60,351 nucleotides of DNA, taken from positions 1 through 60,351 of the forward strand of contig JBGVPD010000071.1 of NCBI GenBank assembly GCA_045126815.1, in the 5' to 3' direction. The position numbers were made by a program, and so were the translations under genes. Under the pieces are notes generated by a model, which was given only the letters and a program-made list of their open reading frames with translations, ran no database searches and was not told the origin of the DNA. Positions 45,864 to 60,351 of this stretch are shown in pieces (positions within the stretch are counted from its first letter, which is position 1; every line of letters starts with the position of its first letter). Source of the DNA: Eubacteriales bacterium. Lineage in GTDB: Bacteria; Bacillota; Clostridia; Oscillospirales; CAG-272.

Positions 45864-48122
45864 TTAATTAAGTGGAAGTTCATACCCATTTTTTAAGAAA
45901 ATGATGTTTTTTGTGTTTGGGAGAGTGGTTTTATAGTGTTCAAAGATCTCTTTAGAGGGAAAAAACAGCGATACGTTATCCTTGAAAAAAAGACTTAAAC
46001 GGGCAGGATCACATTTTATACCGTACGTACCGAATATGTAATTATTTTGCGTATTAAAAAGTTTAGTAGCATATCCTTTTCCGTATACAGTTGAGTCAAA
46101 TCCGTAGCTGAAATAAACGTAAGAGCTGTTATTTGCAGAAAGGGTTACGGCTATTGAATCAGGCTTATATTCAGCACTTTTGGAAAGGTTTTCGACTTGT
46201 ATATCTACACCGTTGAAAGCTATTAAATTGTCGTATGGTACAATATCGATTTTGTATTCATTTGCGAGTGAAATGATTTGTTGTTTTATTACCTCATCAT
46301 ACTGTCCGTACGTTGTGGGGAGATATAAAGTTTCAATGTCGGTAACAGCCGATAAACGTTCGACCGACTTTAAATAGCGGTTGGTATAATCGGTTATAAT
46401 ATACCCGTTAAGTTGTGTTAGGTGATTGTTGTTAAGATGTAACTCAGCTAAAAGTGCATTTTGCGTATTTCCACCGGATATGTCTAAAAGAAGGGTTTTT
46501 CTGTTGCTTATTATTAGAAAAGATTGGCCTGAATATGATGTGGAATATATGGCTTTTTGTGTGTCTTTTGTGTTTGCAAAGTGGACATAAATACAAATAC
46601 TGAAAATCAGAATTGACACAATAAACGGAATGAAATAAACAGATTTATTTTTTGGATTTGTCAAAGAAATGATAAATAATGTAACTACCAAAAATATTAT
46701 AATATATTTAGAAAAACTGTAGTTTATTGATATGACAGGAGAAAAGTCGGAAAGTAGCTCTGCCAAAGTAAGCATAAGTTTAGCCGATAGATAGGGGATT
46801 AAAGATACCGAATGAGCTAGAGGTGGTATAAAGGAAAGACAGAGGAACACGGGGCAGGTGTACATAATAGCTAAGAGAAACGGTGTAAATAATATGTTTG
46901 AAATTGGAGAAAGAACAGCTATTTCACCGTAGGATATCCATATTGCAGGAATTGAGAATAAAACGGGGACGATGCCGAATAACAGCATAGACCATAGCTT
47001 TTTAAATGTTGTTTTAAGTAAAGAATGTTTTTCTTCGTTGTTTTGGTTATCAATAGATTTTTGTGTTACGGGAATGGCGACAGCCAATATTCCGTAGGTC
47101 GAAAGGAATGATAACCATAGACCTATATCAAAGACTGAGCATGGTGAGAAAAAGACGATCAACGCGACCGATGTGCAAAGCGAAGTTATTGAATCGTTGC
47201 TTTTTGAAATAAGGAAGGTAAGATAATAGATAATAAGCATTAAGGCTGCTCTTTTTACGGATGATGAAAATCCTGTCAGTCCTGCATAAGCAAATGTAAG
47301 AAAGATCATTAATACGTACTTTTTCTTTTTGTTTATGCTAAGTTTATCAATTATTAGGTCTAGGGTTGATATTAGAATTGAGAGATGAAGTCCGCTAACA
47401 GCGAGCATGTGGGATAGTCCCAGCTTTTGAAAATTGTATTTAGTGTGAGGGGAGAGTTTTGATTTGTTTCCCAATATTAACGCTTGTGATAAATTGTTTT
47501 CTTCACCTTTTATGTGTCTGTCGAATACCGAAGATAATGTGTTGTTAAGTTTGTCAAAGAAGTAGTTAGGGAATAATTTTACAAGAGTTTTATTATCGGT
47601 TATTTTATCTGTAACGTTTGCACTGATGAATATGCCGTTTGACAAGTTGGATATCCTGTTATCAGTTTCGTAGGTGTTGTTCTGGGAAAACATAACTTTT
47701 GCGCTGTATGAATAATAAAGCGGTGTATCAATGGTGCCTTGGAAAGTAATTGTTGCTTTAAAATTCGATCTATCATTATTTACAGAGGTTACTTTTACAG
47801 TGTATATAGAATAGGTATCGGAAACGTAATGTTCTTCTATGGGAATGAAATCAATGTAACATTCTTTGTCAACATAAGTTTGAATGTTGTTGTAGTTGAT
47901 GTCGAAATTTATTATAGAGATGAGTGAAGATATGAGTAATGGCGGAAGAACGAAAAATGTAACAAATTTGAAATTACGTTTTATTAAGAGAAATATGAAG
48001 AGAAGCAGAAAAAATGAAAAGAGAATTGTTTTGACTGTGAGACTAAAGTAGACAGAAATAAGTGTTGAGAAAAGAAAGAGACAACACGAGAAGGCAAAGG
48101 GACGAAGTTTCAAAGCTGTCAA
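45864..48122 (-). CDS. comEC: ComEC/Rec2 competence protein with degenerate metallo-beta-lactamase domain
   Basis: GLSHMLAVSGLH, S..RAA.M, G.WLSF.ST; TTG start after AAAGGAGG. Confidence 0.85.
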   Translation of the reverse strand: MTALKLRPFAFSCCLFLFSTLISVYFSLTVKTILFSFFLLLFIFLLIKRNFKFVTFFVLPPLLISSLISIINFDINYNNIQTYVDKECYIDFIPIEEHYVSDTYSIYTVKVTSVNNDRSNFKATITFQGTIDTPLYYSYSAKVMFSQNNTYETDNRISNLSNGIFISANVTDKITDNKTLVKLFPNYFFDKLNNTLSSVFDRHIKGEENNLSQALILGNKSKLSPHTKYNFQKLGLSHMLAVSGLHLSILISTLDLIIDKLSINKKKKYVLMIFLTFAYAGLTGFSSSVKRAALMLIIYYLTFLISKSNDSITSLCTSVALIVFFSPCSVFDIGLWLSFLSTYGILAVAIPVTQKSIDNQNNEEKHSLLKTTFKKLWSMLLFGIVPVLFSIPAIWISYGEIAVLSPISNILFTPFLLAIMYTCPVFLCLSFIPPLAHSVSLIPYLSAKLMLTLAELLSDFSPVISINYSFSKYIIIFLVVTLFIISLTNPKNKSVYFIPFIVSILIFSICIYVHFANTKDTQKAIYSTSYSGQSFLIISNRKTLLLDISGGNTQNALLAELHLNNNHLTQLNGYIITDYTNRYLKSVERLSAVTDIETLYLPTTYGQYDEVIKQQIISLANEYKIDIVPYDNLIAFNGVDIQVENLSKSAEYKPDSIAVTLSANNSSYVYFSYGFDSTVYGKGYATKLFNTQNNYIFGTYGIKCDPARLSLFFKDNVSLFFPSKEIFEHYKTTLPNTKNIIFLKNGYELPLN

Positions 48123-48332
48123 AGGGTAATCCTCCTTTCAAAAATTAGATTTATAAGAAGAATATACCATTTATATGAGTTTTTGTAAAGAGAATGGGCT
48201 ATAATAATGAGGGATAAAAAAGCGGGAGAGATAAGAATGTATTGTTAACAAAAAATTCATATTCTTTCTATTGCAAAACGAGAGAAAATGTGATATACTA
48301 CGTGAAGTTGAATAGAAAAAGAAGTTCACCGA

Positions 48333-48423
48333 GGAGAAGTACTCAAGTTGGTGAAGAGGCGCCCCTGCTAAGGGTGTAGGTCGGGTAACCGGCGCGAGAG
48401 TTCAAATCTCTCCTTCTCCGCCA
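48333..48423 (+). tRNA. tRNA-Ser(GCT)
   Basis: GGAGAAG/CTTCTCC acceptor stem, anticodon loop CT-GCT-AA, long variable arm, GTTCAAATC T-loop, encoded CCA. Confidence 0.97.
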
Positions 48424-48821
48424 AATAAGGAACAGTAGATTGATACAATCGTATCGACCTACTGTTTTCTTTTTATCGTTAAAAATTGACCGAAAGTCCT
48501 TGTAAATCAAGGGCTTTTTCTCTTTGGTGGTGCATTTCGCTATAAGCGGTGCCTATATCTTATGCCTCGGAAGCCTCAAAATTCAGAAAAGCACTACTCC
48601 CCGTCAAGGTGTAGTGCCTTCCTATCGTTAAAAGATTGGTATTCGTTAAATTACTGATTTAGCGTTCTGCCAAGTTCAATATAGGGCAACTAATCAATGT
48701 AAGGCTATTATCACCATTATTCTACCTAGGGGGGAGAGCACTCTTGCTGAAATTGATACAAGCAGCCTATCGTTGTCCCCCGATTGTGAAGAATTTTTAA
48801 TGCTTTTAAACTCACTTAGTA

Positions 48822-48849
48822 TTGAAAAAATAAAGAAATATGATATAAT
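48822..48849 (+). promoter_or_regulatory. SigA promoter for the peptide/HEPN unit
   Basis: TTGAAA-N16-TATAAT with TG extension. Confidence 0.65.
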
Positions 48850-48911
48850 ATATTTTGGTGATGACGGTAGATTAGGGGCGTTTGCCCACTTCTATCTAAG
48901 GAGGTAACCAT

Positions 48912-49022
48912 ATGAAGGTTAATCCAAGAACCGTCAAGTTTGTGTTGGAACTTGTTGTTGCAGTCGCATCTGCTGCAAGTGTGGTGGTAACCAAGTACTA
49001 TCTTGAATCCCCCCAGCCATAA
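48912..49022 (+). CDS. 36-aa hydrophobic peptide (not in ORF track)
   Basis: TAAGGAGGT RBS; MKVNPRTVKFVLELVVAVASAASVVVTKYYLESPQP*. Confidence 0.65.
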   Translation: MKVNPRTVKFVLELVVAVASAASVVVTKYYLESPQP

Positions 49023-49085
49023 CTCACCACGGGTACATTATCCTTTGGGAAGTGTGCCCGATTTGTTTATTAGGGAGGTCTATAA

Positions 49086-50747
49086 ATGGAAAGTGGTTTT
49101 AACTATAATATTCTGTTAAATCAAGCATTGGATAAAATTCGGAATATTAGAGATCCTCGCTCGCTACATCAAGAATATGTACTTTATGGGTTGAAAGAAA
49201 GCCAGAGTAATAGTGCAGTAAGTATTGGAGGAGAAGCTTTTGCAACGTATTCCGACATCGTTGAAAGCGCTCAAGCGGTAACCATTCAATGCTTAGAAAT
49301 GACAATATTCTATTTATTGCAGCACTATGGTTACGATGTCGAACGTGTTGATGCTTCTAAAATAAATAACGATGCTAATTTTGCCATTCTGGATAAAGCA
49401 AAGTCTACGCTCTTATTATTTAAGAAACCGTTTAATGACTTGGTTATTGCGGGACCTAATTGCGTTACTGATGATGAAGATAAAGCAAAAGAATGTTTTA
49501 ATGTTGAGAAATGTGTATGCGTTTTCTTGATGTATGATAGAGCACCCAAGCAGTTTATTCCGACTCTGGAATTAAACCAAATACTTGATAACTATGTTTT
49601 TTCATTAAAGACCCTGTTTGACCGCTATTTTAATGATGCGGAATTTGCGACCTTCCATAGGTGTTTTTCAAACTACACCAAATTCGTTAATAAGTATTTA
49701 GGATTTACAGTTGTAAAAAACTTAACACCCGTAGCACAAAGCAATTTTTCAAAAATTGTAAAGTATAGATTAGAACATTTTGACTATAAAAAACTACTGA
49801 CTATTGAGATGAATGGTAAAATCTTAATTGAGCCATCATACAATGAAATAGCAACGGAGTTCATAAAAAATAACAAGTATCTTATACTATTGGGTTCTCA
49901 AGATTTCGCAGAAAGTTTAATTACCGCAGAGTGGATGTATGACTCAATGAAAGAGGCTCAAGCAATAGATTTAACAATTATAGGAATGGGATATTTGAAA
50001 GCGGTGGAACAACTGATATATTCCATAGTTTTGCTTCATAAAAATGAGGGGCGAAATATTAAGAGTAATCAACGCGGAATATTGAACGTGTGCTTGGACG
50101 ATGAACACATCGATAATAATTCAATAGATTCTTCAATTGGTTCGTTGGCTAATTTCTGCAAAAACAACTTGGATATATTTAGTGGCAAAGTTCACTTCCA
50201 AGCAAAAAAATATGTTACAGAAACTATCTTCGCGTTTAAGGATATACGTAACGGTTATTTCCACAAGCACAATATTCACGATTGGTCAAAGATTGATGAA
50301 ATAAGAAATGTAACGTATTACTTGGCATTTTTATTATTGGGTGCGGCTGAGTTAACCGACAAGGACAAAGCCACGCTCGGCTTTCCCAATTGTGATTTTA
50401 TTAGCGATAAATACAAGTTATGCGAATACATAAATTATCACGATGACGATGCTTTCGTTCTTTGTTATGACAACGAAAAAGAAATTATAGCGATTGCCCA
50501 CCGTGACCTTAAGGCAAAAACCATAAACAACCTTTTCACACAGTATTCTGGAGCATATTTTTCGGAAATAGGAAGTCACACCATTATTGATATTTTTACG
50601 GATATGCCTAACGAAATCTATTTGTGTAGAATTGATTTTGAGCTTTCCGATGGAGTACAATTCAATCCGACAAAGGTTAAAAAAATCTTTGCATATGGTA
50701 AGTTTGTGGGACCTGACCCTTTTTCTGAAGATGGTACTCGATATTAA
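49086..50747 (+). CDS. 553-aa protein with a HEPN-like RxxxxH motif (putative RNase/Abi-type defence protein)
   Basis: GGAGG RBS; YLKAVEQLI helix and IRNGYFH (nt 50247-50264); AT-rich. Confidence 0.55.
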   Translation: MESGFNYNILLNQALDKIRNIRDPRSLHQEYVLYGLKESQSNSAVSIGGEAFATYSDIVESAQAVTIQCLEMTIFYLLQHYGYDVERVDASKINNDANFAILDKAKSTLLLFKKPFNDLVIAGPNCVTDDEDKAKECFNVEKCVCVFLMYDRAPKQFIPTLELNQILDNYVFSLKTLFDRYFNDAEFATFHRCFSNYTKFVNKYLGFTVVKNLTPVAQSNFSKIVKYRLEHFDYKKLLTIEMNGKILIEPSYNEIATEFIKNNKYLILLGSQDFAESLITAEWMYDSMKEAQAIDLTIIGMGYLKAVEQLIYSIVLLHKNEGRNIKSNQRGILNVCLDDEHIDNNSIDSSIGSLANFCKNNLDIFSGKVHFQAKKYVTETIFAFKDIRNGYFHKHNIHDWSKIDEIRNVTYYLAFLLLGAAELTDKDKATLGFPNCDFISDKYKLCEYINYHDDDAFVLCYDNEKEIIAIAHRDLKAKTINNLFTQYSGAYFSEIGSHTIIDIFTDMPNEIYLCRIDFELSDGVQFNPTKVKKIFAYGKFVGPDPFSEDGTRY

Positions 50748-50763
50748 AACATTAATTACTCAA

Positions 50764-50806
50764 ATACAGCCTACTTAGGTTTGTCCTAGTTAGGTTGTAT
50801 TTTTTG
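50764..50806. terminator. Terminator between convergent HEPN and recombinase genes
   Basis: ATACAGCCTA-CTTAGG..CCTAGT-TAGGTTGTAT followed by a T tract. Confidence 0.65.
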
Positions 50807-50866
50807 CTGATGCAAAGCATCTATTTAACGTTCTCTTATTATACAATCCGCAGGTGGCATAGCTCT

Positions 50867-52450
50867 CTACATCATCACCGTTTTCTCGCATCCGTTTCGA
50901 AAGGTGAATACAAGCCGTCCGTCATTGTGAACGGTGATGCGTTCAACGATTGCGTGAAAACGACCATCGCTCCATTCGGTATCCAGGCGATCAAGTTGGG
51001 ACAGTTCGAACAGAAATCCGCTGAGCACGTCGGCTTTAAATTTTCTTTCCTCCCGTTGCTGCGTAAGAGCTGTATAACGCTTCTGTAACCCTCTGTAACG
51101 TTCGGTCAGGCTTTCGTATGACTTAGTATATTCCTCTTGGTTAAGAGCCGTTATCGCATTGTCGGTAATGGCTTTTTCTATCATCTTTGTAACAATCTCA
51201 ATCTCTTCCGTGACCGATCTTATCTCGGCATCAATTTCAGTATGATCGGAAAGAGTTTTCTTTATAAGTCTTCCATCCTCAATTAAGGCTTCACGGTTTT
51301 CGATGAGAAAGCTCAATGCAATGATGGAATACTCCTTGAGTACATCTTCTGTAAAATGCGGTGTTGAGCATTTCTCCTCTCCCTTGAATTTATGATTGCA
51401 TTGCCATATAACACGGCGGTACTGATCGTTTGAGTGCCACACCTTGGGACCGAACCACTCTCCGCAATCCCCGCATATGACCTTCCCCGAGAAAGGACTA
51501 TTACAAGAAGTACGTTTCGGTGCGTTCTTACGTCGGCAGATCTCCCCCTGAACCATCTCCCACTCTGCCGGATCTATTATTGCAGGGTGGCTGTTCTCCA
51601 CGTAATACTGAGGAACCTCACCCTCATTGATTTTCATCTTTTTCGTTAAATAATCCGTTGTAAACTTCTTCTGAAGCCGTGCGTCCCCCTTGTATTTCTC
51701 GTTTGTAAGGATACTCTCCACGGTGCTCGTTTGCCACACCTTCTTTTTCCCCGGTGTGGGAACACCCTCGGTAGTAAGGTGTCTTGCAATGTAATTTGCG
51801 GATTTACCGTCGATAAACATTCGGTATATGCGCCGTACTATTTCGGCTTCATCCGGCACTATTTCGGGCAGACCGTTTGCTCCTTTTCTGTAACCGAGGA
51901 ATTGTTTATACGGCATGCTGACCTTGCCGTCGGCAAATCGCTTGCGTTGTCCCCAGGTCACGTTCTCGGAAATGGAACGGCTTTCTTCCTGGGCAAGGGA
52001 TGACATAATGGTTATGAGAAGCTCACCCTTGGAATCCATCGTCCATATATTTTCTTTTTCAAAGTACACCTCAACACCTTTGTCCTTGAGCTTACGGACG
52101 GTGGTAAGGCTGTCCACGGTATTACGGGCAAAGCGACTTACGCTCTTGGTTACGATGAGGTCGATTTTGCCGCTCAGAGCATCGGATACCATTCTGTTAA
52201 AGCCGTCACGCTTTTTTGTATTGAGGGCGGATATGCCTTCATCGGTATATACCTCAACAAATCCCCATTCGGGACGGCTTTTGATGTAATTGGTGTAGTA
52301 GTCCACCTGTGCCTCATAGCTTGTGAATTGTTCATCGCTGTCGGTGGACACACGTGCATATCCCGCTACCTTCCGTTTTGTTTTTGATGCTGTGGATATT
52401 CCCGTATGCAAATTTCGTGTGGCGGGTATTACGGTTACGTTCTTAGCCAT
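50867..52450 (-). CDS. Large serine recombinase (resolvase, recombinase and Zn-ribbon domains)
   Basis: YARVSTD, DEGIS, TKSVSRFARN, AQEESRSISEN, CGDCG, coiled coil. Confidence 0.95.
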   Translation of the reverse strand: MAKNVTVIPATRNLHTGISTASKTKRKVAGYARVSTDSDEQFTSYEAQVDYYTNYIKSRPEWGFVEVYTDEGISALNTKKRDGFNRMVSDALSGKIDLIVTKSVSRFARNTVDSLTTVRKLKDKGVEVYFEKENIWTMDSKGELLITIMSSLAQEESRSISENVTWGQRKRFADGKVSMPYKQFLGYRKGANGLPEIVPDEAEIVRRIYRMFIDGKSANYIARHLTTEGVPTPGKKKVWQTSTVESILTNEKYKGDARLQKKFTTDYLTKKMKINEGEVPQYYVENSHPAIIDPAEWEMVQGEICRRKNAPKRTSCNSPFSGKVICGDCGEWFGPKVWHSNDQYRRVIWQCNHKFKGEEKCSTPHFTEDVLKEYSIIALSFLIENREALIEDGRLIKKTLSDHTEIDAEIRSVTEEIEIVTKMIEKAITDNAITALNQEEYTKSYESLTERYRGLQKRYTALTQQREERKFKADVLSGFLFELSQLDRLDTEWSDGRFHAIVERITVHNDGRLVFTFRNGCEKTVMM

Positions 52451-53744
52451 TTTGTGTTCTCCTTTCCGAAGCCCTCTGCCTTGCTGCCTCTCTCATTTCA
52501 CCCGTCCAAACGTCGCTCCGAGAACGCGGCTTCCATCGTTTAACGGGTGTTTCTCCGCCTGCAAGGTGAAATATCAAAGCGTTTTCTTTTGTGGCTGTAA
52601 TTGCCGTTATCCTATCAAAAAACGCATTCGGCGTAAGTTCCGTAACACCGAGCACCTCAGATGCAAGCCTAAATAGCTCTTCCTCGGGGATTTGCTTTGA
52701 TGTGCACATCTCTTTGCCCTTCTCCTGATATAAAGCACAGTTCCAGGCTTTTCTGCCGTTGCTTGTAATACGCTTGTAATGTCTTCCGCAACTCTCACAA
52801 ACTATCATCCCGGAAAAGATGCTGCGCTCACAAGGAGTATGCTCGGATATACGGTGTGTGTTCCTTTGCAGGATCTCTCTGACGGCACAAAACAGTTCTT
52901 CATCAATGATACCTTCGTGAGTCCCCTCTGCATAATACATCGGAAGTTCTCCGGTATTGCGGAGTTCTTTTTTCTCCAAGTGGTTATTACGGTACTTCTT
53001 TTGCAAAAGGGCGTTACCGCAGTATTTTTCGTTTCCGAGCAAGGCAGCAATACGGCTAGCCTTCCATTTACCTCCGTTGGTACCCCTGATGCATCTGTTG
53101 TTGAGATCACGGGCAATGGCACCAAAGCTTTCTCCATCTGCTGCTCTTCGGAATATCTCTCGTACAATAGGTGCGGTAGCTTCATCAACCTCAAGGTTTC
53201 CTTTTACTACTCGGTAACCGAACATTCTGCGGACGTTCATTATCTTACCCTCTTGAAACTGCTTTCTGACCTTCCATTTCTGATTCTCACTTGCGGAGAG
53301 ACTTTCCTCCTGGGCATAGCTTGCAAGAATTGTAAGCATCAGTTCCCCGTCAGCACTTGCGGTGTGAATGCTCTGTTCCTCAAAATACACATCAACTCCC
53401 AGGCTCTTCAGTTCTCTAACAGTTTCAAGAAGAGTTATGGTGTTTCTCGCAAATCGCGATATGGACTTGGTTATGATCATATCCACCTTTCCGCTTCGGC
53501 AATCTGCGAGAAGCCTTTGAAAGTTTTCTCTGTTATCCTTTGTACCGCTCAAGGCTTCGTCCGTATATACTCCGGCATACTCCCAATCATTATGGCTTTG
53601 TATCATTTTGCTGTAATAGCTGACCTGTGCGGAGAGGGAGTGAAGCATGGCATCCTTACCTGTGGACACTCTCGCATATGCAGCTACACGCTTTTTCTTT
53701 GGTAACACTTCGGGAAAGTGTACTTGTTCGATTTTTCTTGCCAT
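52443..53744 (-). CDS. Second large serine recombinase
   Basis: YARVSTG, TKSISRFARN, AQEES.S.SEN, CESCG; overlaps the next recombinase by 8 nt. Confidence 0.95.
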   Translation of the reverse strand: MARKIEQVHFPEVLPKKKRVAAYARVSTGKDAMLHSLSAQVSYYSKMIQSHNDWEYAGVYTDEALSGTKDNRENFQRLLADCRSGKVDMIITKSISRFARNTITLLETVRELKSLGVDVYFEEQSIHTASADGELMLTILASYAQEESLSASENQKWKVRKQFQEGKIMNVRRMFGYRVVKGNLEVDEATAPIVREIFRRAADGESFGAIARDLNNRCIRGTNGGKWKASRIAALLGNEKYCGNALLQKKYRNNHLEKKELRNTGELPMYYAEGTHEGIIDEELFCAVREILQRNTHRISEHTPCERSIFSGMIVCESCGRHYKRITSNGRKAWNCALYQEKGKEMCTSKQIPEEELFRLASEVLGVTELTPNAFFDRITAITATKENALIFHLAGGETPVKRWKPRSRSDVWTGEMREAARQRASERRTQNG

Positions 53745-53803
53745 ATAACCTCCTGTGTATTACTTATAAGGTACTATATATATCACTCTAACCCCTCTGA
53801 AAG

Positions 53804-54031
53804 TCAAGCGATTTCAGAAAATAAACTACCCGAAGATAATCCGTACTTTTTGTTTAATACGTCAATAGCTTTCTTATAATCCGTGACCGTCAGAAGACCT
53901 TGCTTTACCATCCTTTCTACAAGTGCTGCGGAGGTGTGATAAAGAATAAGCCCGGACGGATCATACGGATTTCGCTCTGCGTGCTTTAAGGTAGCATTCC
54001 CGACTACAGTATTTACGACGGTTGTTTCCAT
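53804..54031 (-). CDS. Small SHOCT-like protein preceding the tandem recombinases
   Basis: MVKQGLLTVTDYKKAIDVLNKKY pattern typical of the small gene before LSR pairs. Confidence 0.65.
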   Translation of the reverse strand: METTVVNTVVGNATLKHAERNPYDPSGLILYHTSAALVERMVKQGLLTVTDYKKAIDVLNKKYGLSSGSLFSEIA

Positions 54032-54341
54032 AGCTCACAAACTCCTTTCCGCATTCCTCGCAAACGAGGCTGTAATATGCTTTTCGGTTTATGGATTCGG
54101 GATGAGAATTCCACCAAGCCATACGGCACTTATCCGAGCAGAACTTTTTCTCACGTCTTCCCGTGGGCTGCGATACAAATGCACCGCAAGTCATACAACG
54201 GCGGGTACCGGGGATATCGGGATGACGGCGGATATGCGAACGTACGGTATTGGGAGAAAGTTGTAGGATGAGGGCGATGTCACCTGCGGACTTGCCTTCC
54301 ATGCGAAGGTTATCGATTGCAATTTTATCTTGCGGTTTCAT
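53961..54341 (-). CDS. HTH plus Cys-rich zinc-ribbon protein
   Basis: IA..LQLSPNTVRSHIRR; CMTCG, FCSDKC, CEECG, YCSREC; AAAGGAGG RBS. Confidence 0.8.
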   Translation of the reverse strand: MKPQDKIAIDNLRMEGKSAGDIALILQLSPNTVRSHIRRHPDIPGTRRCMTCGAFVSQPTGRREKKFCSDKCRMAWWNSHPESINRKAYYSLVCEECGKEFVSYGNNRRKYCSRECYLKARRAKSV

Positions 54342-54402
54342 GTTTTATCCTCCTTTGTTTATTGGGAGAGCAACCGTAAAGGTTACTCCCCCGATTGTTG
54401 GT

Positions 54403-55410
54403 TTACGCCTTGACTTCAAGAACCTTTACGGCTTCGGGAAGAACGAGCTTGGCATCAATGCGCTCGGATGTGATGTAAGCAACCTGACCGTGATCGGCAT
54501 AACGTTCAACCAAACGCTTAATACTGCGCTTACCACGCTCACCGATCCAAAAGTGTGAGAAGTCACCGAAAAGGATAGGCTTTGCCCCGGCTTCTACCGA
54601 AGGAAGCTCGTTGGTTACGTATACGGGATAACCAAGGAGCGTGTCGGGCTCATCCTCGCTTAAGGAATTGATCCAAGCAGGCTTGCCGTCATAAAGACCA
54701 AGCTTCTTTAATCTCACCTCGGTGTCCTCGGAAAGAATGAATACGGCATTCTTGCGGTAAGGCTCCTTAACGGAATAAATGAGGTCGATGAGGTCATCAA
54801 AGCTCAGTGCATCGGCATCGTTTATTACCTTGCCCACCTCTGCCTGATGGATAATACCCACGGGTTTGCCGTTGCCGTCACCCGTAAAAAACGCCTCTTC
54901 CTCCGCCTTGGCTATGGAATAAACGAACATATGGCGGATGTATTCCTCAACATTGAAATTGGCGTCCTCCAAGAGCTCGTCCGAAACGAGAATGCGCTGT
55001 GCCAGCTTGTATGCCCCGAGCACAATCTCGCCAAAGGTTGTTTCGCTGATAGGTACGCTCTCACCCTCCGGAATCCAAACAGCAGAGCCCTCTTCTACAA
55101 CCTTGGGGATCTTCATTGTTTTAGTGGTCTTGATGACCGTAGCGAGTCTGCGGAGAAGGTTCTTGCGTGTCAAGCCCTCGACGAGCTTCTTCTCAAAGGT
55201 GTTCGGTACAAGGAAGCCACCCGAGCCGTCACTTCCTTTTTTGAGAGCGTTCTGAGGCATACCGGTGTGCATTACATCCCAAAATGCGGAGGCGTATGCT
55301 TCGTCAGATTTGAGCTCTGCTACGGTAGGATCACGCTTAATACCGAGCATTTCTTCTCTTAAAGCGTTGAGTTTTGAAAGATAATCATTGTAGTTTCTTT
55401 TGTTTTTCAT
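54403..55410 (-). CDS. HK97-family phage major capsid protein (solitary)
   Basis: GSDGSGGFLVP, W.PEG, VSDELLED, EEEAFFTGDG.GKP.G, LLGYPV, FGDFS, R.D.K....AVK. Confidence 0.9.
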   Translation of the reverse strand: MKNKRNYNDYLSKLNALREEMLGIKRDPTVAELKSDEAYASAFWDVMHTGMPQNALKKGSDGSGGFLVPNTFEKKLVEGLTRKNLLRRLATVIKTTKTMKIPKVVEEGSAVWIPEGESVPISETTFGEIVLGAYKLAQRILVSDELLEDANFNVEEYIRHMFVYSIAKAEEEAFFTGDGNGKPVGIIHQAEVGKVINDADALSFDDLIDLIYSVKEPYRKNAVFILSEDTEVRLKKLGLYDGKPAWINSLSEDEPDTLLGYPVYVTNELPSVEAGAKPILFGDFSHFWIGERGKRSIKRLVERYADHGQVAYITSERIDAKLVLPEAVKVLEVKA

Positions 55411-55444
55411 AATTGTTTCTCCTTGTATTTTGTTTGTTTTGGAT

Positions 55445-55545
55445 TTAGGGGTTAATACCCCATTTGTTTTTGTCTTTTTGTGCGTGAGGCCCCACGCCCG
55501 TTGTACGAGTGAAAGGCCCCGGAGATTTACATCCCCCTACCGGGT
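55445..55545 (-). other. GC-rich dyad region, candidate cos/packaging site
   Basis: Dyads GCGTG-AGGCCC-CACGC (55482-55497) and GGGG-TTAATA-CCCC (55448-55461), plus GTAGGGGGATGTAAATCTC on the minus strand, immediately upstream of the capsid gene. Confidence 0.4.
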
Positions 55546-55553
55546 ATGCACAC

Positions 55554-55733
55554 TTACCCCTTTTTGCTCGCTGTATTAACAAGCCATTCCTTATAAGCGT
55601 CAACGGGTATAAGAATTCGTGTACCGATGCGAATGGTCGGAAACCCATTTGATTTCACCAGCTCATAGGCTTTCGGCAAGCTTATTCCCATCTGTGCGGA
55701 CAGCTCTTGTACGCTGATTGTTGTCTTATCCAT
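55554..55733 (-). CDS. Excisionase-like HTH_17 protein, 59 aa (not in ORF track)
   Basis: GAAAGGAGGT RBS; MDKTTISVQELSAQMGISLPKAYELVKSNGFPTIRIGTRILIPVDAYKEWLVNTASKKG*. Confidence 0.85.
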   Translation of the reverse strand: MDKTTISVQELSAQMGISLPKAYELVKSNGFPTIRIGTRILIPVDAYKEWLVNTASKKG

Positions 55734-55830
55734 AAACTCACCTCCTTTCAGACAACAAAAAAGCCCATACGGATTTGGAGATCCGTAAAGGCTTTAGATA
55801 TTAAATTGAGCACAGGACTATTTTGTTGTC

Positions 55831-56135
55831 CATTATAATGATACCATATAACCGGCGTTTTGTTTGTTCCATTTGTTCCGATTTTACGATGTTTCATCAT
55901 ATGATACCATTTGTCATTATAATTATATCACACTATGGTTGTTTAATTTGTTTATTTTGTTGGAATTTTTCTCATTAAAATATTACGGGGTATAGTTTTG
56001 CTTTTTAGGAGTAAGAAGCTTTTATGGAGGAATGGTACGGTCGATTACTATATTTCGTCATATGATACCATTTGTCATTATAATTATATCACATTATGGT
56101 TGTTGCATTTGTTTACATTTGTTGCGTATTTTCTC
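55831..56135 (-). repeat. Three leftward promoter-like modules; two form an ~80-bp direct repeat (55892-55973, 56053-56135)
   Basis: Minus strand: AACAAA(T) short direct repeats, then TGTGATATAAT or TGGTATCAT, then TATAATG. Confidence 0.7.
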
Positions 56136-56254
56136 TTTTTTGAAAAATTGCGATGTATAAATTATGGTCTTTTTGAAAAATCGTGGGGAACGTGATGTTT
56201 TTGAGAAGTGCTGTAAAGTATCATATCATACCAGAGATGCTTTTATAGAGGAAT

Positions 56255-56647
56255 GGTGCGGTCGTTGATAGTCATATATAGAAACTCTCTATAGAGTAAA
56301 AAATTTAGTATAAGAGAAAGTTTAGTATATGACTATAGGAGACCGCAACATATAGATAAAAAAGGGATACAACACATGCAATAGTTATGGCGCCGGATGT
56401 CACAAACGATGTTTTATACGATATAAAAATCGTTTATGCATCAAAGGGGGTGAGGTCGACGATAGTCATATATAAAATTCTCTATAGAGCCAAAAAAATA
56501 AGTATAAGAGAAAGTTTAGTAAATGACTATTGGCGATCTCACCCCGCCATGTTGCAGTCAATGATGGTCATATATAAAACTTTTCTATAGAGTAAAAAAA
56601 TTAGTATAAGAAAAAGTTTAGTATATGACTATATGAGACCGCAACAT
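56255..56647. repeat. Three ~95-100 bp imperfect palindromic repeats (56255-56349, 56447-56545, 56549-56647)
   Basis: Shared core GTCATATATA(G/A)AA..TCTATAGAG..AAAAAA..AGTATAAGA.AAAGTTTAGTA.ATGACTAT with self-complementary outer arms. Confidence 0.9.
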
Positions 56648-56738
56648 ATCACCCAAAACAATGAAATCTTATGCCGAATTATTGATTTTTTCACGGAACT
56701 GTGATATGATATTGAATATACGATACGGAGGTGTCATT

Positions 56739-56963
56739 ATGGCTGTCAGTTATAAAAAACTTTTTCATATGATGATCGAGCAGGATGTGTCCAATGCACA
56801 ACTAATGCGTGAGGCAAACATATCTGCAAATATTATAACAAAACTAAAAAATGGTCAGTACATTGCCTTGGACAAGGTTGAAAGTATTTGCAATGCTATG
56901 AAATGTACACCGAATGACATATTGGAATTTGTACCGAATGCGGAGGGAACGAACAATGGCTGA
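56739..56963 (+). CDS. Cro/C1-type (HTH_26) regulator
   Basis: MAVSYKKLF...ICNAMKCTPNDILEF; GGAGGT RBS. Confidence 0.88.
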   Translation: MAVSYKKLFHMMIEQDVSNAQLMREANISANIITKLKNGQYIALDKVESICNAMKCTPNDILEFVPNAEGTNNG

Positions 56964-58533
56964 TATAAAGAGAGACCAGGAGCGGGACGAGTTATTCCGT
57001 ACCATATATAAAATAGCCACCGACCTGGTTCACGCAGGCCACGTAGCGGAATGGGATTTCAAGTCTTATGTTCTCGGTACAATGTTCTACCGCTATATCT
57101 CCGAGAATTTCACCGCTTACATAAATGCCGGTGAACACGCAGCCGGAAACACCGATTTTGATTATGCAAAAATGTCGGATGAGGATGCAGAGCCTGCCCG
57201 TGATGGACTTGTGCAGGAAAAAGGCTTCTTTATTCTGCCCTCTGAACTGTTCTGCAACGTACGCGTCCGTGCCGACAAGGATGAAAACCTCAATGAGACC
57301 TTGGAACGTGTATTTGCCCATATTGAGAGTAGTGCCGCCAGCGGTGATGCTGAGAGTGACTTTGCCGGTCTTTTTGATGATTTTGACGTTAATGCAAAAG
57401 CTATCGGTGAGACCGTTGCCAAGAGAAATAAAGTTCTTGCGGAATTGCTCCACGGTGTTGCCAGAATGCCTCTGTTTTCTACCGAAGGCATCAACCCCGA
57501 TCTGTTCGGTGATGCCTATGAATATCTAATGGGTATGTATGCCGCCAACGCAGGAAAAAAAGGTGGTCAGTATTTTACCCCGGCAGATGTATCCGAACTG
57601 CTTGCCCGTCTCGGCACCATCGGTAAAACACGCATCAACAAAGTATATGACCCCGCCTGTGGTTCCGGTTCGCTTCTGCTCAAGGTAGAAAAAGTTCTCG
57701 GCAAGGATAATATCGAGCGTGGTTTTTACGGTCAGGAGATCGACCTTACCACCTATAACCTTTGCCGTATCAATATGTTCCTCCATAACATTGAATTCGA
57801 TAAGTTCAATATCGTTCGTGAGGACACCCTGCTCACTCCTATGCATTGGGATGACCAGCCCTTTGAACTGATCGTTTCCAATCCACCTTTCTCCGTTCCG
57901 TGGGAAGGGGATAAGAATCCTCTCCTTATTAACGATCCTCGCTTCTCTCCGGCAGGTGTTCTTGCTCCTGCATCCAAGGGAGATATGGCTTTTATTATGC
58001 ACAGCCTTTCCTGGCTTGCCAATAACGGTGCTGCCGCTATCGTTTGTTTCCCCGGTATTATGTACCGTAGCGGTGCGGAGCAGAAGATCCGAAAATACCT
58101 GGTTGATAACAACTATGTGGATGCCATCATTCAGTTACCGTCCAATCTGTTCCTCAACGTCACAATTTCCGTTGACATTATGCTCCTGCGCAAAAACAAG
58201 ATCGACAACTCCATCCTTTTTGTAGACGCGTCCGGTGAGTTTGTCAAGGTAACAAAAAACAACCGTCTTTCCGAAGAGAATATCAGCCGCATCGTTTCCG
58301 CTGTTGCCGAAAGAAAGGATGTGGAGCATTTCTGCACCCTCGTATCGAATGATGTGGTCGGCAGCAAGGAGAATACCTATAACCTTTCTGTTTCCACTTA
58401 TGTAGAGGCAGAGGATACTCGTGAGAAAATCGATATCGTTCAACTGAATGCTGAAATCGCGGAGATCGTGGCTCGTGAGCAGGTTCTCCGTTCGGAGATT
58501 GATAAGATTATTGCGGAGATTGAAGGAGAATAA
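56956..58533 (+). CDS. hsdM: Type I R-M methyltransferase subunit M
   Basis: GQYFTP, YDPACGSGSLL, SNPPF (m6A), FPGIMYR. Confidence 0.96.
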   Translation: MADIKRDQERDELFRTIYKIATDLVHAGHVAEWDFKSYVLGTMFYRYISENFTAYINAGEHAAGNTDFDYAKMSDEDAEPARDGLVQEKGFFILPSELFCNVRVRADKDENLNETLERVFAHIESSAASGDAESDFAGLFDDFDVNAKAIGETVAKRNKVLAELLHGVARMPLFSTEGINPDLFGDAYEYLMGMYAANAGKKGGQYFTPADVSELLARLGTIGKTRINKVYDPACGSGSLLLKVEKVLGKDNIERGFYGQEIDLTTYNLCRINMFLHNIEFDKFNIVREDTLLTPMHWDDQPFELIVSNPPFSVPWEGDKNPLLINDPRFSPAGVLAPASKGDMAFIMHSLSWLANNGAAAIVCFPGIMYRSGAEQKIRKYLVDNNYVDAIIQLPSNLFLNVTISVDIMLLRKNKIDNSILFVDASGEFVKVTKNNRLSEENISRIVSAVAERKDVEHFCTLVSNDVVGSKENTYNLSVSTYVEAEDTREKIDIVQLNAEIAEIVAREQVLRSEIDKIIAEIEGE

Positions 58534-58534
58534 T

Positions 58535-59317
58535 ATGCCCCTTGTTCTAAAAAATCATACGGGAAATTTGTCGATATTAAAACACAATACACTCCCTATG
58601 ATAAAAACCGGAGAATTTGATTTTTATCGATGCATACAGTTTAGCGAGAACTTGTACGGAAAAACCGTCAGTGAATTGCATGCAGGGAATTTGCGTTTAA
58701 GCCGATCTGATAATCGTTATTCCAACTTGTTTCCCGGGCAGAAACTTTCATATTGGGCTGACAGTCCCAACACTGCGATGGCAGAAGCGAGAAAATGGGG
58801 AGCAAATAAGAATCTGCTGACTTTCTGGGCTTATGATGATGGAAGTAGTTTTATACCAACCGTATACCCGCCACTGGAACTGCAGATTATTGACGGAACA
58901 CAACTTGAGTTCAACAAAATACTAAAAAAGCTTGAAAAGCATGAGAGTTTAACAAAAGCAGATCGGGAGTTAATAGATGATATAGCATGTCAAGAACCCG
59001 ATTGTCTTGCGTATGAATCGGAAGCTCAAAAAGGTGGTACAAACTTCTTGTTTTTTGAACATGGATTCAAGAAGTTATCCATTAGAGAAGTTTGGCTAAG
59101 ACTGGGAGAACGTGTTGGACAAAATCATAACAAAATCGTTTGTGCTACTTCAAGCGATTATACGCCGCATCTTTCTTCTTACGGCAATATGTTTTTGCCC
59201 ATTGCGAGAATAGGCAATAGTTCTACATATACCGATTCAGATGAATATCACTTAAGGATGCAAGTGGTGATTGATAAGGCTGAGAGATTAGTAGGTGAAT
59301 ATAGTGACAAAACTTGA
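58535..59317 (+). CDS. RES-domain protein inserted between hsdM and hsdS
   Basis: FYRC; NRYS..SYWADSPNTAMAE; LAYES..GGTNFLFF match the R-E-S pattern; starts 1 nt after the hsdM stop. Confidence 0.65.
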   Translation: MPLVLKNHTGNLSILKHNTLPMIKTGEFDFYRCIQFSENLYGKTVSELHAGNLRLSRSDNRYSNLFPGQKLSYWADSPNTAMAEARKWGANKNLLTFWAYDDGSSFIPTVYPPLELQIIDGTQLEFNKILKKLEKHESLTKADRELIDDIACQEPDCLAYESEAQKGGTNFLFFEHGFKKLSIREVWLRLGERVGQNHNKIVCATSSDYTPHLSSYGNMFLPIARIGNSSTYTDSDEYHLRMQVVIDKAERLVGEYSDKT

Positions 59318-60351
59318 ACAACTGATAAACGAACTCTGCCCAAACGGAGTGGAACACGTTACATTAGGTTCTGTTTGTGAAATTGGCAAAGGTGTACAAT
59401 TTAATAAAGTTGATATGAATGATGAGGGAACGTATCCAGTAATCAATGGAGGCATTAACCCATCAGGATATATTGAACAATATAATCAAGTCGAAAACAC
59501 GATTACTATTTCACAGGGCGGTGCATCCGCTGGATATGTAAATTGGTTGACGGTAAAATTTTGGGCTGGAGCTCATTGTTATATTGTTAAACCGAGCTAT
59601 AAACTTCTCAACAGATACGCCTACCACTTCATTAAGTCTCAAGAATATAAACTTCAAGAATGTCAATACGGAGCTGGCATCCCAGCTTTGGCAAAATCAA
59701 CAGTTGCCGATTTATTAATCCCCGTACCTCCCCTTGAAGTACAGCGTGAAATTGTTCGTATACTGGACAATTTCACGGAGCTTACAGCGGAGCTTACAGC
59801 GGAGCTTACAGCGAGAAAAGATCAATATGCCTATTATCAAAATCTCCTGCTGTCACGCTCTGTCGGAGAAGAACATACTCTTTCCGATTGCTGTGTATCC
59901 ATAGCAGACGGCGACCATCAGCCCCCTCCTAAAGCTGATGAGGGAGTTCCGTTTATCACAATCTCCAATTTATCAGGAAACGGCATTGATTTCACAGATA
60001 CCAAATTCGTGCCACAGGAATATTACGATAGTCTTGATGACAAGCGACGTGCAAAAAAAGATGATATCTTATACTCCGTGGTTGGAACTTTCGGTATCCC
60101 TGTCCATATCACAGAGGACAAGCCGTTCATTTTCCAGCGGCATATTGCAATCCTGCGCCCCAATACAGAGATGATTGCACCACGATATTTATACCATGTA
60201 ATGAAAAGCGATGCCTTTTACAAAAAGGCCGATGCCGCCGCAATAGGCGCAGCACAGCGTACCATCAGCCTGACCGCGCTGAATCGCATGAAAATCACCG
60301 TGCCGAGTATGGATGTTCAAGAACGCCTTGTCCGTGTCCTCGACAACTTCG
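59304..60351 (+). CDS. hsdS: Type IC R-M specificity subunit S (3' truncated)
   Basis: GTG start, TKLEQLINELCPNGVE; IPVPPLEVQREIVRILDNFTELTAELTAELTARK.QY; second TRD runs to the window end. Confidence 0.92.
   Translation, partial: MTKLEQLINELCPNGVEHVTLGSVCEIGKGVQFNKVDMNDEGTYPVINGGINPSGYIEQYNQVENTITISQGGASAGYVNWLTVKFWAGAHCYIVKPSYKLLNRYAYHFIKSQEYKLQECQYGAGIPALAKSTVADLLIPVPPLEVQREIVRILDNFTELTAELTAELTARKDQYAYYQNLLLSRSVGEEHTLSDCCVSIADGDHQPPPKADEGVPFITISNLSGNGIDFTDTKFVPQEYYDSLDDKRRAKKDDILYSVVGTFGIPVHITEDKPFIFQRHIAILRPNTEMIAPRYLYHVMKSDAFYKKADAAAIGAAQRTISLTALNRMKITVPSMDVQERLVRVLDNF
59777..59812 (+). repeat. 3 x 12-bp GGAGCTTACAGC (TAEL spacer repeat)
   Basis: Three perfect tandem copies in the hsdS central conserved region. 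Confidence 0.95.

Follow-up and report, generated by a model that had tools for sequence, protein, structure and literature searches.

Introduction

The cos site of phage phi12 is part of the island SaPIbov5, which also encodes Ccm, a 355-aa homologue of the 402-aa capsid protein of its helper phage, and Ccm is described as filling pentamers and forcing the formation of small isometric shells (PMC8569155). Phage-inducible chromosomal islands of the capsid-forming type (cf-PICIs) are reported to encode a whole head and packaging set (10.1101/2022.09.08.507074), and gut 'mini genomes' of ~8.75 kb are described with an HK97 major capsid protein (MCP), a scaffold protein and an integrase, and with no terminase, portal or tail genes (PMC13669383, 2026). 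Heliusvirales-like phages are presented as ranking with the most widely distributed temperate phages in the human gut, and the nine marker genes given for the Heliusvirales include those for the large terminase subunit (TerL), portal, MCP, protease, Pol I, helicase and nuclease (PMC11283538). The present work concerns a block at positions 50868-56648 of a 60351-nt stretch of DNA (referred to as the window) from a Eubacteriales bacterium, which includes genes for a short HK97-type capsid homologue and two large serine recombinases (LSRs). The window is one entire contig (JBGVPD010000071.1) of a 95-contig assembly, and position 60351 is the contig end. The block is best explained, with a probability of roughly 0.6, as belonging, in reduced form, to a family of small integrative elements that descend from Heliusvirales-like temperate phages of gut Bacillota and are most likely satellites of these phages.

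Gene content and limits of the block

Gene calls in the block were made with Pfam, PHROGs and NCBIfam. Six genes, all of them intact, share the minus strand from 55733 down to 50867. The first, at 55554-55733, encodes a 59-aa protein of the HTH_17/excisionase family (xis; PF12728, 6.7e-7; TIGR01764, 38.2 bits, cut-off 28.8), and directly adjoins a GC-rich, conserved non-coding element of ~95 nt at 55443-55537 (minus strand; nhmmer profile, 4.2e-24) and the capsid gene. The latter, at 54403-55410, encodes a short HK97-type MCP homologue of 335 aa (PF05065, 8.8e-72; TIGR01554, 3e-83). It is followed by a gene at 53961-54341 for a 126-aa protein with a helix-turn-helix (HTH) domain (sigma-70 r4/HTH_38) and a C-terminal Zn-ribbon (phrog_2308, 8e-39; referred to as HTH/Zn), and by a gene at 53804-54031 for a small SHOCT_2 protein (PF20612, 1e-6). 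The last two genes encode LSR1 (433 aa, 52443-53744) and LSR2 (527 aa, 50867-52450), overlap by 8 nt, and each match the Pfam families Resolvase (4.8e-35 for LSR2), Recombinase and Zn_ribbon_recom.

No open reading frame (ORF) in 50867-56650 matched portal, protease, terminase, tail, primase or lysis families in Pfam or PHROGs. Both the gene list (xis-like HTH, GC-rich dyad, capsid, HTH/Zn-ribbon, SHOCT and two LSRs) and this lack of other phage genes had been proposed in an earlier sequence-only reading of the window, and are borne out here. Like a phage-inducible chromosomal island (PICI), the block has no tail, lysis or full head genes and has site-specific recombinases, the two LSRs, at one end, which coincides with the LSR2 stop codon. 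A replication module of its own (pri-rep), as in a PICI, was found neither in the window copy nor in the genome that carries it. In PICIs, which measure ~10-15 kb, a master repressor and an alpA/xis-type gene belong to a divergent regulatory region; the block includes an xis-type gene, no repressor gene is among the genes inside 50868-56648, and an HTH_26 gene is located just outside. The classic definition of PICIs includes a tyrosine integrase. Tyrosine and serine recombinases are treated as exchangeable in SatelliteFinder, as described for that tool (PMC10085698).

The limits of the block are sharp. Identity to the window in three contigs from viral collections (L017-L019) is 95.5% and extends over precisely 50868-56647/8, with flanks on either side that are unrelated to those of the window. 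A locus in the genome of another species (L007, 77% identity) breaks at the same two positions, and on the LSR side each of the three contexts has its break at the stop codon of LSR2. In addition, one contig of the public run X9 diverges from the window at 50869 and another at 56647, and a third contig of this run spans 56614-57777 with the arrangement found in the window. At the boundary of the block, the GC content changes from ~0.34 to ~0.46. A 5.8-kb block that is 95.5% identical between contexts with both flanks changed implies recent movement.

No internal stop codon was found in the six genes of the window, L018, L007, L065 or L015. With the window as reference, the ratio of non-synonymous to synonymous substitution rates (dN/dS) for the capsid gene was 0.11 (L007), 0.13 (L065) and 0.14 (L015), and low values were also obtained for HTH/Zn (0.08 against L007), xis (0.06) and LSR2 (0.10 against L018). 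The capsid is thus not evolving neutrally, which was a test named beforehand. Together with the intact genes and the sharp, recurrent limits, the values of 0.11-0.14 uphold the view that the intact ORFs are unlike random decay, and indicate that the block is not a product of random prophage decay.

The block is a mosaic. Between the window and L018, the xis proteins are 100% identical despite a dS of 0.68, whereas the dS of the capsid gene is only 0.046. LSR1 is 95% identical to its counterpart in L018 and 55% identical to that in L007, as against 88% identity of HTH/Zn between the window and L007. The junction of xis, the ~95-nt element and the capsid gene is shared by the window and L007 in a single alignment of 2779 nt, even at a capsid dS of ~1.

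A family of related elements

A scan of metagenomes with a short-capsid profile yielded 80 loci. The counts given below are for 51 short-capsid loci from metagenomes, genomes and viral collections, near-duplicates included. Where 700 bp or more of downstream sequence was available (36 loci), HTH/Zn, SHOCT or LSR genes were present without exception, and LSR matches were found in 17 of the 18 loci with at least 3.6 kb. None of the 51 loci included a homologue of TerL or portal, and protease, connector, tail and lysis families were absent from the ORFs scanned with Pfam (the window and five long loci). The occurrence of portal or terminase genes in homologous loci had also been named beforehand as a test, and the outcome for portal and TerL, as well as the synteny of the 51 loci, supports the suggestion of a Clostridial satellite-like family.

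The description of such elements as 'capsid-only' did not survive the comparison. Where at least 4.5 kb of upstream sequence was available (21 loci), a DUF3987-type primase-helicase gene was found in 15, a gene for the small terminase subunit (TerS) in 17, and an HNH match in eight. Forms without primase or TerS are L007, L015 and L018, and nothing was detected in L090. In the five long loci annotated with Pfam, the order is xis (HTH_17, adjoined by an HTH_3 repressor in L070 and L084), a DUF3987 protein of 750-850 aa, a small ORF, HNH, TerS, the short capsid, HTH/Zn, SHOCT and two LSRs. The TerS domain Terminase_4 was identified in L084, and the replication protein of the relatives belongs to either DUF3987 or DUF927 (Pfam). 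Independent contigs have sharp-ended units of 10.1-10.5 kb in common, namely L093 and L098 (4507-14904, 93% identity), L091 and L092 (1881-12399, 99%), and L091 and L096 (2310-12375, 95%).

As judged by these alignments and annotations, the family has a fixed order of xis, primase-helicase, HNH, ~95-nt element, TerS, short capsid, HTH/Zn, SHOCT, LSR1 and LSR2. Measured against this order, the copy in the window is a reduced form, its lineage having lost primase, HNH and TerS. The genes that it retains are still subject to purifying selection, and the same architecture is seen in L017-L019 and L007. A single-protein pattern scan of genome contigs recovered three loci only, and a class-level genome search with the capsid recovered only MCPs of the phage type.

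The short capsid protein

The capsids of the family are 331-350 aa long as compared with ~400 aa in phages. The TIGR01554 match of the window capsid covers model positions 75-385 of 385, and residue ~90 of the phage MCPs (359-401 aa) aligns mostly with residue ~35 of the window protein, which is therefore without ~57 N-terminal residues that make up most of the delta/scaffold region. Its length is fixed, being exactly 335 aa in 115 of the best 120 database homologues (60-98% identity). Among the matches listed for phage MCPs, the closest share no more than 47% identity, and phages of gut Bacillota account for 11 of the 15 records; across the comparisons taken together, identity to phage MCPs does not exceed 48%. 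An AlphaFold2 model of the capsid built from a 16-row alignment was too poor (pLDDT 44.8) and was not used.

Placing the capsid in a phylogeny against phage MCPs had been named as a check in the sequence-only reading. An unrooted tree of 91 rows was built with FastTree, a quick method, after 15 distant loci, two partial sequences and exact duplicates were left out from 117 rows. In this tree, 39 short capsids lie on one side of a branch with an SH-like support of 99, which indicates that the short capsids are an old lineage separate from the phage MCPs. Minimal forms do not group apart from TerS-bearing ones in this tree but are mixed with them, and therefore reduction or recombination recurs.

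Two further groups of loci were observed. L105 and L107-L112 have two tandem capsid paralogues (306 and 330-346 aa), followed by an LSR pair in L111 and L112, and the tandem-capsid group L105-L112 joins the short-capsid side of the tree. In L112, Pfam identified two proteins encoded upstream, one of the sigma-70 r4 type and one a DUF927 helicase that has the HTH_56 domain of Cch, and the match of the helicase of this group to the Cch1 model of the staphylococcal cassette chromosome (SCC) is weak (72.7 bits, cut-off 700). The L111/L112 group raises the possibility that LSR-pair/Cch cassettes are linked to elements with a capsid gene. A second type of small element was found in nine viral contigs (L146, L153, L177, L191, L198, L199, L223, L233 and L246), with a capsid of ~310-370 aa flanked by two inverted copies of the ~95-nt element in seven of the nine loci (L191 has one copy) and followed by a single LSR. 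The capsids of this type fall among the phage MCPs in the tree, which suggests a separate second origin. Three capsid homologues of ~304-306 aa (38-39% identity) were also seen at a spacing of ~9 kb in G160:C1 (340995-341879, 350084-350968 and 358896-359783) and may represent a tandem array of another small capsid-bearing element; similar matches of ~301 aa occur in G427, G125, G102 and G299.

The ~95-nt element and its occurrence in phages

The ~95-nt element at 55443-55537 is the sole copy in the genome. A profile of the element recovered 151 copies in the fetched loci, and it is 75-78% identical across loci whose capsids are only 44-55% identical. In TerS-bearing relatives it is located between HNH and TerS, and it abuts the capsid gene where TerS is absent. 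A 22-nt motif of the element matched more than 104 stretches in IMG/VR. Among 103 IMG/VR loci, the arrangement was HNH-element-TerS in 84, HNH-element at the end of the locus or with no TerS match in five, element-TerS in one, and element-capsid in 13. TerL was found in 24 and portal in 14 of the same loci, which confirms that the TerL and portal queries work. In the Terrisporobacter phage TPDSL_ph1 and in the Acutalibacteraceae phage NatCom_991 (Candidatus (Ca.) Heliusvirales), the element is likewise located between the HNH gene and the next gene (small terminase), and in Streptococcus phage Javan105 it is intergenic and ahead of a TerS-sized ORF. Hence, the interpretation of the GC-rich dyad as a cis-signal of phages, made from the window alone, agrees with its position at the HNH-TerS junction in the viral loci.

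An RNA structure was considered as an alternative and rejected. RNAalifold gave -0.57 kcal/mol, four pairs and no compensatory change for 70 copies of the element, such that no consensus RNA fold was found, and a search of 48000-57000 against Rfam (E up to 0.1) yielded no match at the element, the only matches being tRNA-Ser (48333-48420) and a sub-threshold match to a microRNA family (50749-50814). The conservation of the element comes in short blocks, and in view of this and the lack of an RNA fold, it is likely to be a DNA site bound by protein. It is probably a cos or other packaging site.

The phage loci resemble the family beyond this element. Homologues of HTH/Zn in phages are 44-51% identical to that of the window, and in NatCom_991 and Javan105 an endolysin gene is followed by HTH/Zn, a small ORF and two LSR genes, after which the prophage record ends. 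The small ORF occupies the position of SHOCT in the relatives. As the phage records end right after the LSR pair, an att site at the LSR2 stop codon fits. The viral loci also include a DUF4314 gene between TerS and TerL, and a gene for a DUF3987-type protein upstream of HNH. In gene order, the family therefore corresponds to such a phage minus two parts, from TerL through protease and from the connectors through lysis, as far as synteny can indicate. The LSR pair, which had been thought to set the block apart, does not do so, since HTH/Zn, a small ORF and two LSRs make up the usual right end of Heliusvirales-like prophages.

Non-coding region upstream of xis

Just upstream of the ribosome-binding site of xis lies a hairpin with a U-run resembling an intrinsic terminator (55755-55794, minus strand); the fold of 55740-55830 has an energy of -26.6 kcal/mol and a z score of -3.7. 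It is preceded by two to three direct repeats (55831-56115, minus strand; repeat families D2 and D3) with extended -10-like boxes, which by eye resemble promoters and face the xis-capsid-LSR genes. One repeat unit (55896-56058, 161 nt) is missing from a contig of run X2. The terminator and the tandem promoter-like repeats suggest either control by read-through or antitermination, or short RNA genes.

Further upstream, 56253-56649 includes three palindromic units of ~101 nt with no strand assigned (56253-56353, 56447-56547 and 56549-56649; repeat family D1), predicted to form long hairpins (z -6.8 to -7.7). The middle unit has a different outer stem, yet is self-complementary. L007 and L069 have copies of the units at the same place, the genome that carries the window has none outside this locus, and the outermost unit marks the second end of the block (56647/8). 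The units could be operators, accessory sites for the LSRs or small RNAs.

Flanking regions and defence genes

Genes for an HTH_26 regulator and a type I restriction-modification (R-M) system adjoin the block at 56661-60350 on the plus strand and run to the contig end; the presence of an R-M locus next to the block had been recognised from the sequence of the window. Pfam identified HTH_26 (56661-56963), HsdM (56914-58533) and HsdS (59295 to the contig end), and an ORF of 289 aa between hsdM and hsdS (58448-59317, plus strand) has a RES-like match of 22.6 bits, which is below the curated threshold of 23.2; no match to this ORF was found with PADLOC or NCBIfam.

Defence-type genes were found on the xis side in seven of the nine contexts examined. 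These are type I R-M in the window and L084, BrxP in L018, type I R-M with an hsdS shufflon together with AbiO/Nhi and TmtA model matches in L007 (genome G061), Dcm, HindVP and AbiH in L015, Vsr, Dcm and a DrmE_C-like protein in L070, and a SNF2 helicase in L093; the two contexts without are L091 and L112. An HTH_26 gene leads the operon in five of the nine. On the LSR side, L017 has NERD and viperin-like genes. Because phage records also carry accessory genes at the xis-side end, the cargo may lie inside the element. The R-M locus may be cargo or just a neighbour, the sharp break at 56647/8 allowing the block alone as the mobile unit.

The ~22-kb defence cargo beside L007 has at its far end a third SHOCT and LSR (458 aa) gene set (L013, G061:C22 9726-11277), in the same orientation as the LSR pair of L007. 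This set could mark where a neighbouring element ends, or be what is left of one.

On the other side of the window block, an ORF of 553 aa just past the end of LSR2 (49086-50747) had no match in Pfam, PHROGs, PADLOC or NCBIfam. A non-coding segment of 245 bp (48424-48665) directly follows the CCA of tRNA-Ser(GCT) and is 90% identical to a segment near L007 (15616-15853) that directly follows tRNA-Met(CAT), in both genomes 1-2 kb beyond the LSR2 end. The segment begins with a terminator hairpin and contains two 'TATCGTTAAAA' repeats, and a search of the rest of the G061 contig found neither a repeat that matches it nor an inverted partner. Synteny after tRNA-Ser varies among five genomes of the same genus. 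The tRNA was considered as the outer limit of the element, and this was dropped as the phage records end at the LSR2 stop codon.

Proposed mechanism and alternative explanations

From the homology, synteny, sharp ends, selection and common cis-element, we infer that the block is mobilised with the aid of a helper. Integration would be carried out by the LSR pair, and one crossover would take place at the stop codon of LSR2 or adjacent to it. Upon infection by a helper, or its induction, the leftward operon behind the terminator would be read, from xis through the capsid, HTH/Zn and SHOCT genes to the two LSR genes, and the element would then excise. HNH, TerS and TerL of the helper would recognise the common ~95-nt element as a packaging site of the cos type, and the short capsid would co-assemble with head proteins of the helper to form a smaller shell. 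This shell would package the element at a cost to the phage, as in the case of Ccm and SaPIbov5, and adjoining defence genes would travel along if they are inside the element.

Several observations weigh against this explanation. Queries with TerS, TerL, portal, HNH and the DUF3987 primase gave no tblastn match in any of the 95 contigs of the assembly, and the nhmmer profile found no second copy of the ~95-nt element there. The window copy has no replication gene, TerS, HNH or in-block repressor, and its transfer may be inefficient or fail altogether. The minimal form is the less frequent one, being seen in three of the 21 loci for which the upstream sequence suffices, and in the window in addition. 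Neither a circle nor an empty-site joint was seen in the short contigs of public runs X2, X5, X8 and X9, in the parts that these contigs cover, and the block ends show, by eye, no inverted symmetry as expected of a simple LSR attP. Finally, the ~95-nt element might instead be a control site of the late operon, a possibility to which we give clearly less weight than to packaging. Adjacent copies of the element in tandem or as back-to-back inverted pairs (L070 9782-9967, L126 442-630 and L231 5557-5747), as present in some full-length relatives, are hard to square with a simple one-way cos site.

The absence of primase, HNH and TerS from the window and assembly would also be expected if the window copy were a dead-end deletion derivative of a full-length satellite, which has lost its repressor as well, is no longer mobilised at a useful frequency and persists as an integrated remnant next to defence genes, perhaps still able to excise. 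The rarity of minimal forms and the evidence from the capsid tree that reduction or recombination recurs would fit as well. However, the minimal form is common to the window, L017-L019 and L007 across a capsid dS of ~1, the dN/dS values are 0.06-0.11 for xis, HTH/Zn and capsid, and the near-identical block in changed flanks implies recent movement. Islands of the SaPIbov5 type are also described without TerS (PMC8569155). A dead-end derivative is thus considered unlikely, though it is the best of the alternatives.

It is a little less likely again that the 5.8-kb block is a complete and self-sufficient minimal satellite, consisting of an LSR pair, an excisionase, a truncated capsid and a borrowed packaging site, and inserting beside defence cassettes headed by HTH_26. 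One LSR would then perhaps serve for integration and the other for cassette capture. If true, this would make the defence islands of gut Clostridia a cargo that Heliusvirales phages package at high frequency, would place the block among the smallest phage satellites known, and would suggest a phage-satellite origin for SCC-like cassettes with an LSR pair and a Cch helicase.

The frequent defence-type genes on the xis side (7/9), the NERD and viperin-like genes on the LSR side of L017, the loss of ~57 scaffold residues from the capsid, and the absence of a helper from the genome by TerL and portal queries could each be accommodated if the capsid is kept as a defence gene that poisons the heads of incoming Heliusvirales-like phages, with the LSRs merely anchoring or moving a defence island. 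This appears improbable, as no PADLOC model matches the capsid, HTH/Zn or SHOCT proteins, and the capsid is always accompanied by the packaging-region element and mostly also by TerS, HNH and primase, which have functions in packaging and replication and not in defence. In known satellites, moreover, interference and piracy are not exclusive of each other.

That the block is the end of an ordinary decaying prophage, or a module with which a conjugative or mobilisable element integrates, with the capsid as a functionless leftover, is very improbable and already largely refuted. In favour of it, the gene order is that of a Heliusvirales-like prophage with middle parts deleted, and DUF4314, which is common in conjugative elements, adjoins several copies. 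Against it, all genes are intact with a capsid dN/dS of 0.11-0.14, the short capsids are one old lineage with at most 48% identity to phage MCPs and a length fixed at 335 aa in 115 of the best 120 homologues, the ends of the unit are sharp and recurrent, the phages, too, have DUF4314 between TerS and TerL, and Pfam scans of 41 selected non-overlapping ORFs of at least 60 aa in the first 44 kb of the G061 contig detected no relaxase or type IV secretion family.

If the block is a reduced satellite of Heliusvirales-like phages, a satellite family that borrows a packaging-region element, a capsid fold and an integration module would add a layer of helper parasitism to the ecology of gut phages, and would provide a route by which genes for restriction, BREX-type systems and abortive infection could pass among gut Clostridia. 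Such a family would also supply natural LSR pairs with element ends that are readable from the sequence. The reduced window copy shows how little such an element may need, and poses the testable question of whether a lone truncated capsid and a site of ~95 nt are enough for piracy.

Comparison with known systems

Temperate gut phages of Ca. Heliusvirales, such as NatCom_991, and related Javan prophages of Streptococcus have the DUF3987-type helicase/primase, HNH, the ~95-nt element, TerS, DUF4314, MCP, HTH/Zn and the LSR pair in common with the family, in the same order. They differ in being 54-57 kb long and in having TerL, portal, tail and lysis genes, and as the window retains only the MCP homologue of the nine marker genes, it does not qualify as such a prophage. 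Literature searches for serine-recombinase satellites and for satellites of Heliusvirales found no description of a capsid-LSR family, the searches covering material other than the supplements of PMC13669383 and PMC11283538. The text of the Heliusvirales paper (PMC11283538) includes no match for 'satellite', 'HNH', 'cos site' or 'serine'.

The gut 'mini genomes' are similar in being very small elements of the gut in which a single shell gene of the HK97 fold is accompanied by genes for lysogeny, sigma-like regulators and a helicase, and differ, as far as described, in having an MCP with an encapsulin-type domain, a scaffold protein and no packaging genes found (PMC13669383). By this description they are set apart from the block, of which the capsid matches PF05065 only, and from its relatives with TerS and HNH. 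A further resemblance is to SCC (ccrA/ccrB and Cch), where an adjacent pair of LSR genes moves a cassette with variable cargo. The LSRs of the block are not orthologues of Ccr, as both score 129-131 bits on the CcrB model (cut-off 900), and 57 and 66 on the CcrA model (cut-off 700). SCC elements are not known to carry a capsid gene.

The cf-PICI set comprises MCP, protease, portal, connectors, TerS/TerL and HNH. The full-length relatives of the block resemble cf-PICIs in encoding HNH, TerS, capsid, alpA/xis-like and primase genes, whereas the window has the MCP homologue alone and the relatives add only HNH and TerS, such that the complete set is present in neither.

SaPIbov5 differs from the block in that the latter uses two LSRs and not a tyrosine integrase, that the window copy has no Stl-type repressor or pri-rep, and that host and helper clades are others. 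By analogy with this island, a cos function and the redirection of capsids can be regarded as putative roles for the block. As in SaPIbov5, it is a small integrative island, which in the window copy has no terminase, portal, tail or lysis genes of its own, and which includes sequence common to the packaging region of the helper group. It likewise encodes a shortened HK97-fold capsid, of 335 as compared with ~400 aa, and in being shorter than the protein of the helper group it is comparable to Ccm, which is given as 355 aa as compared with 402 aa for the helper protein (PMC8569155).

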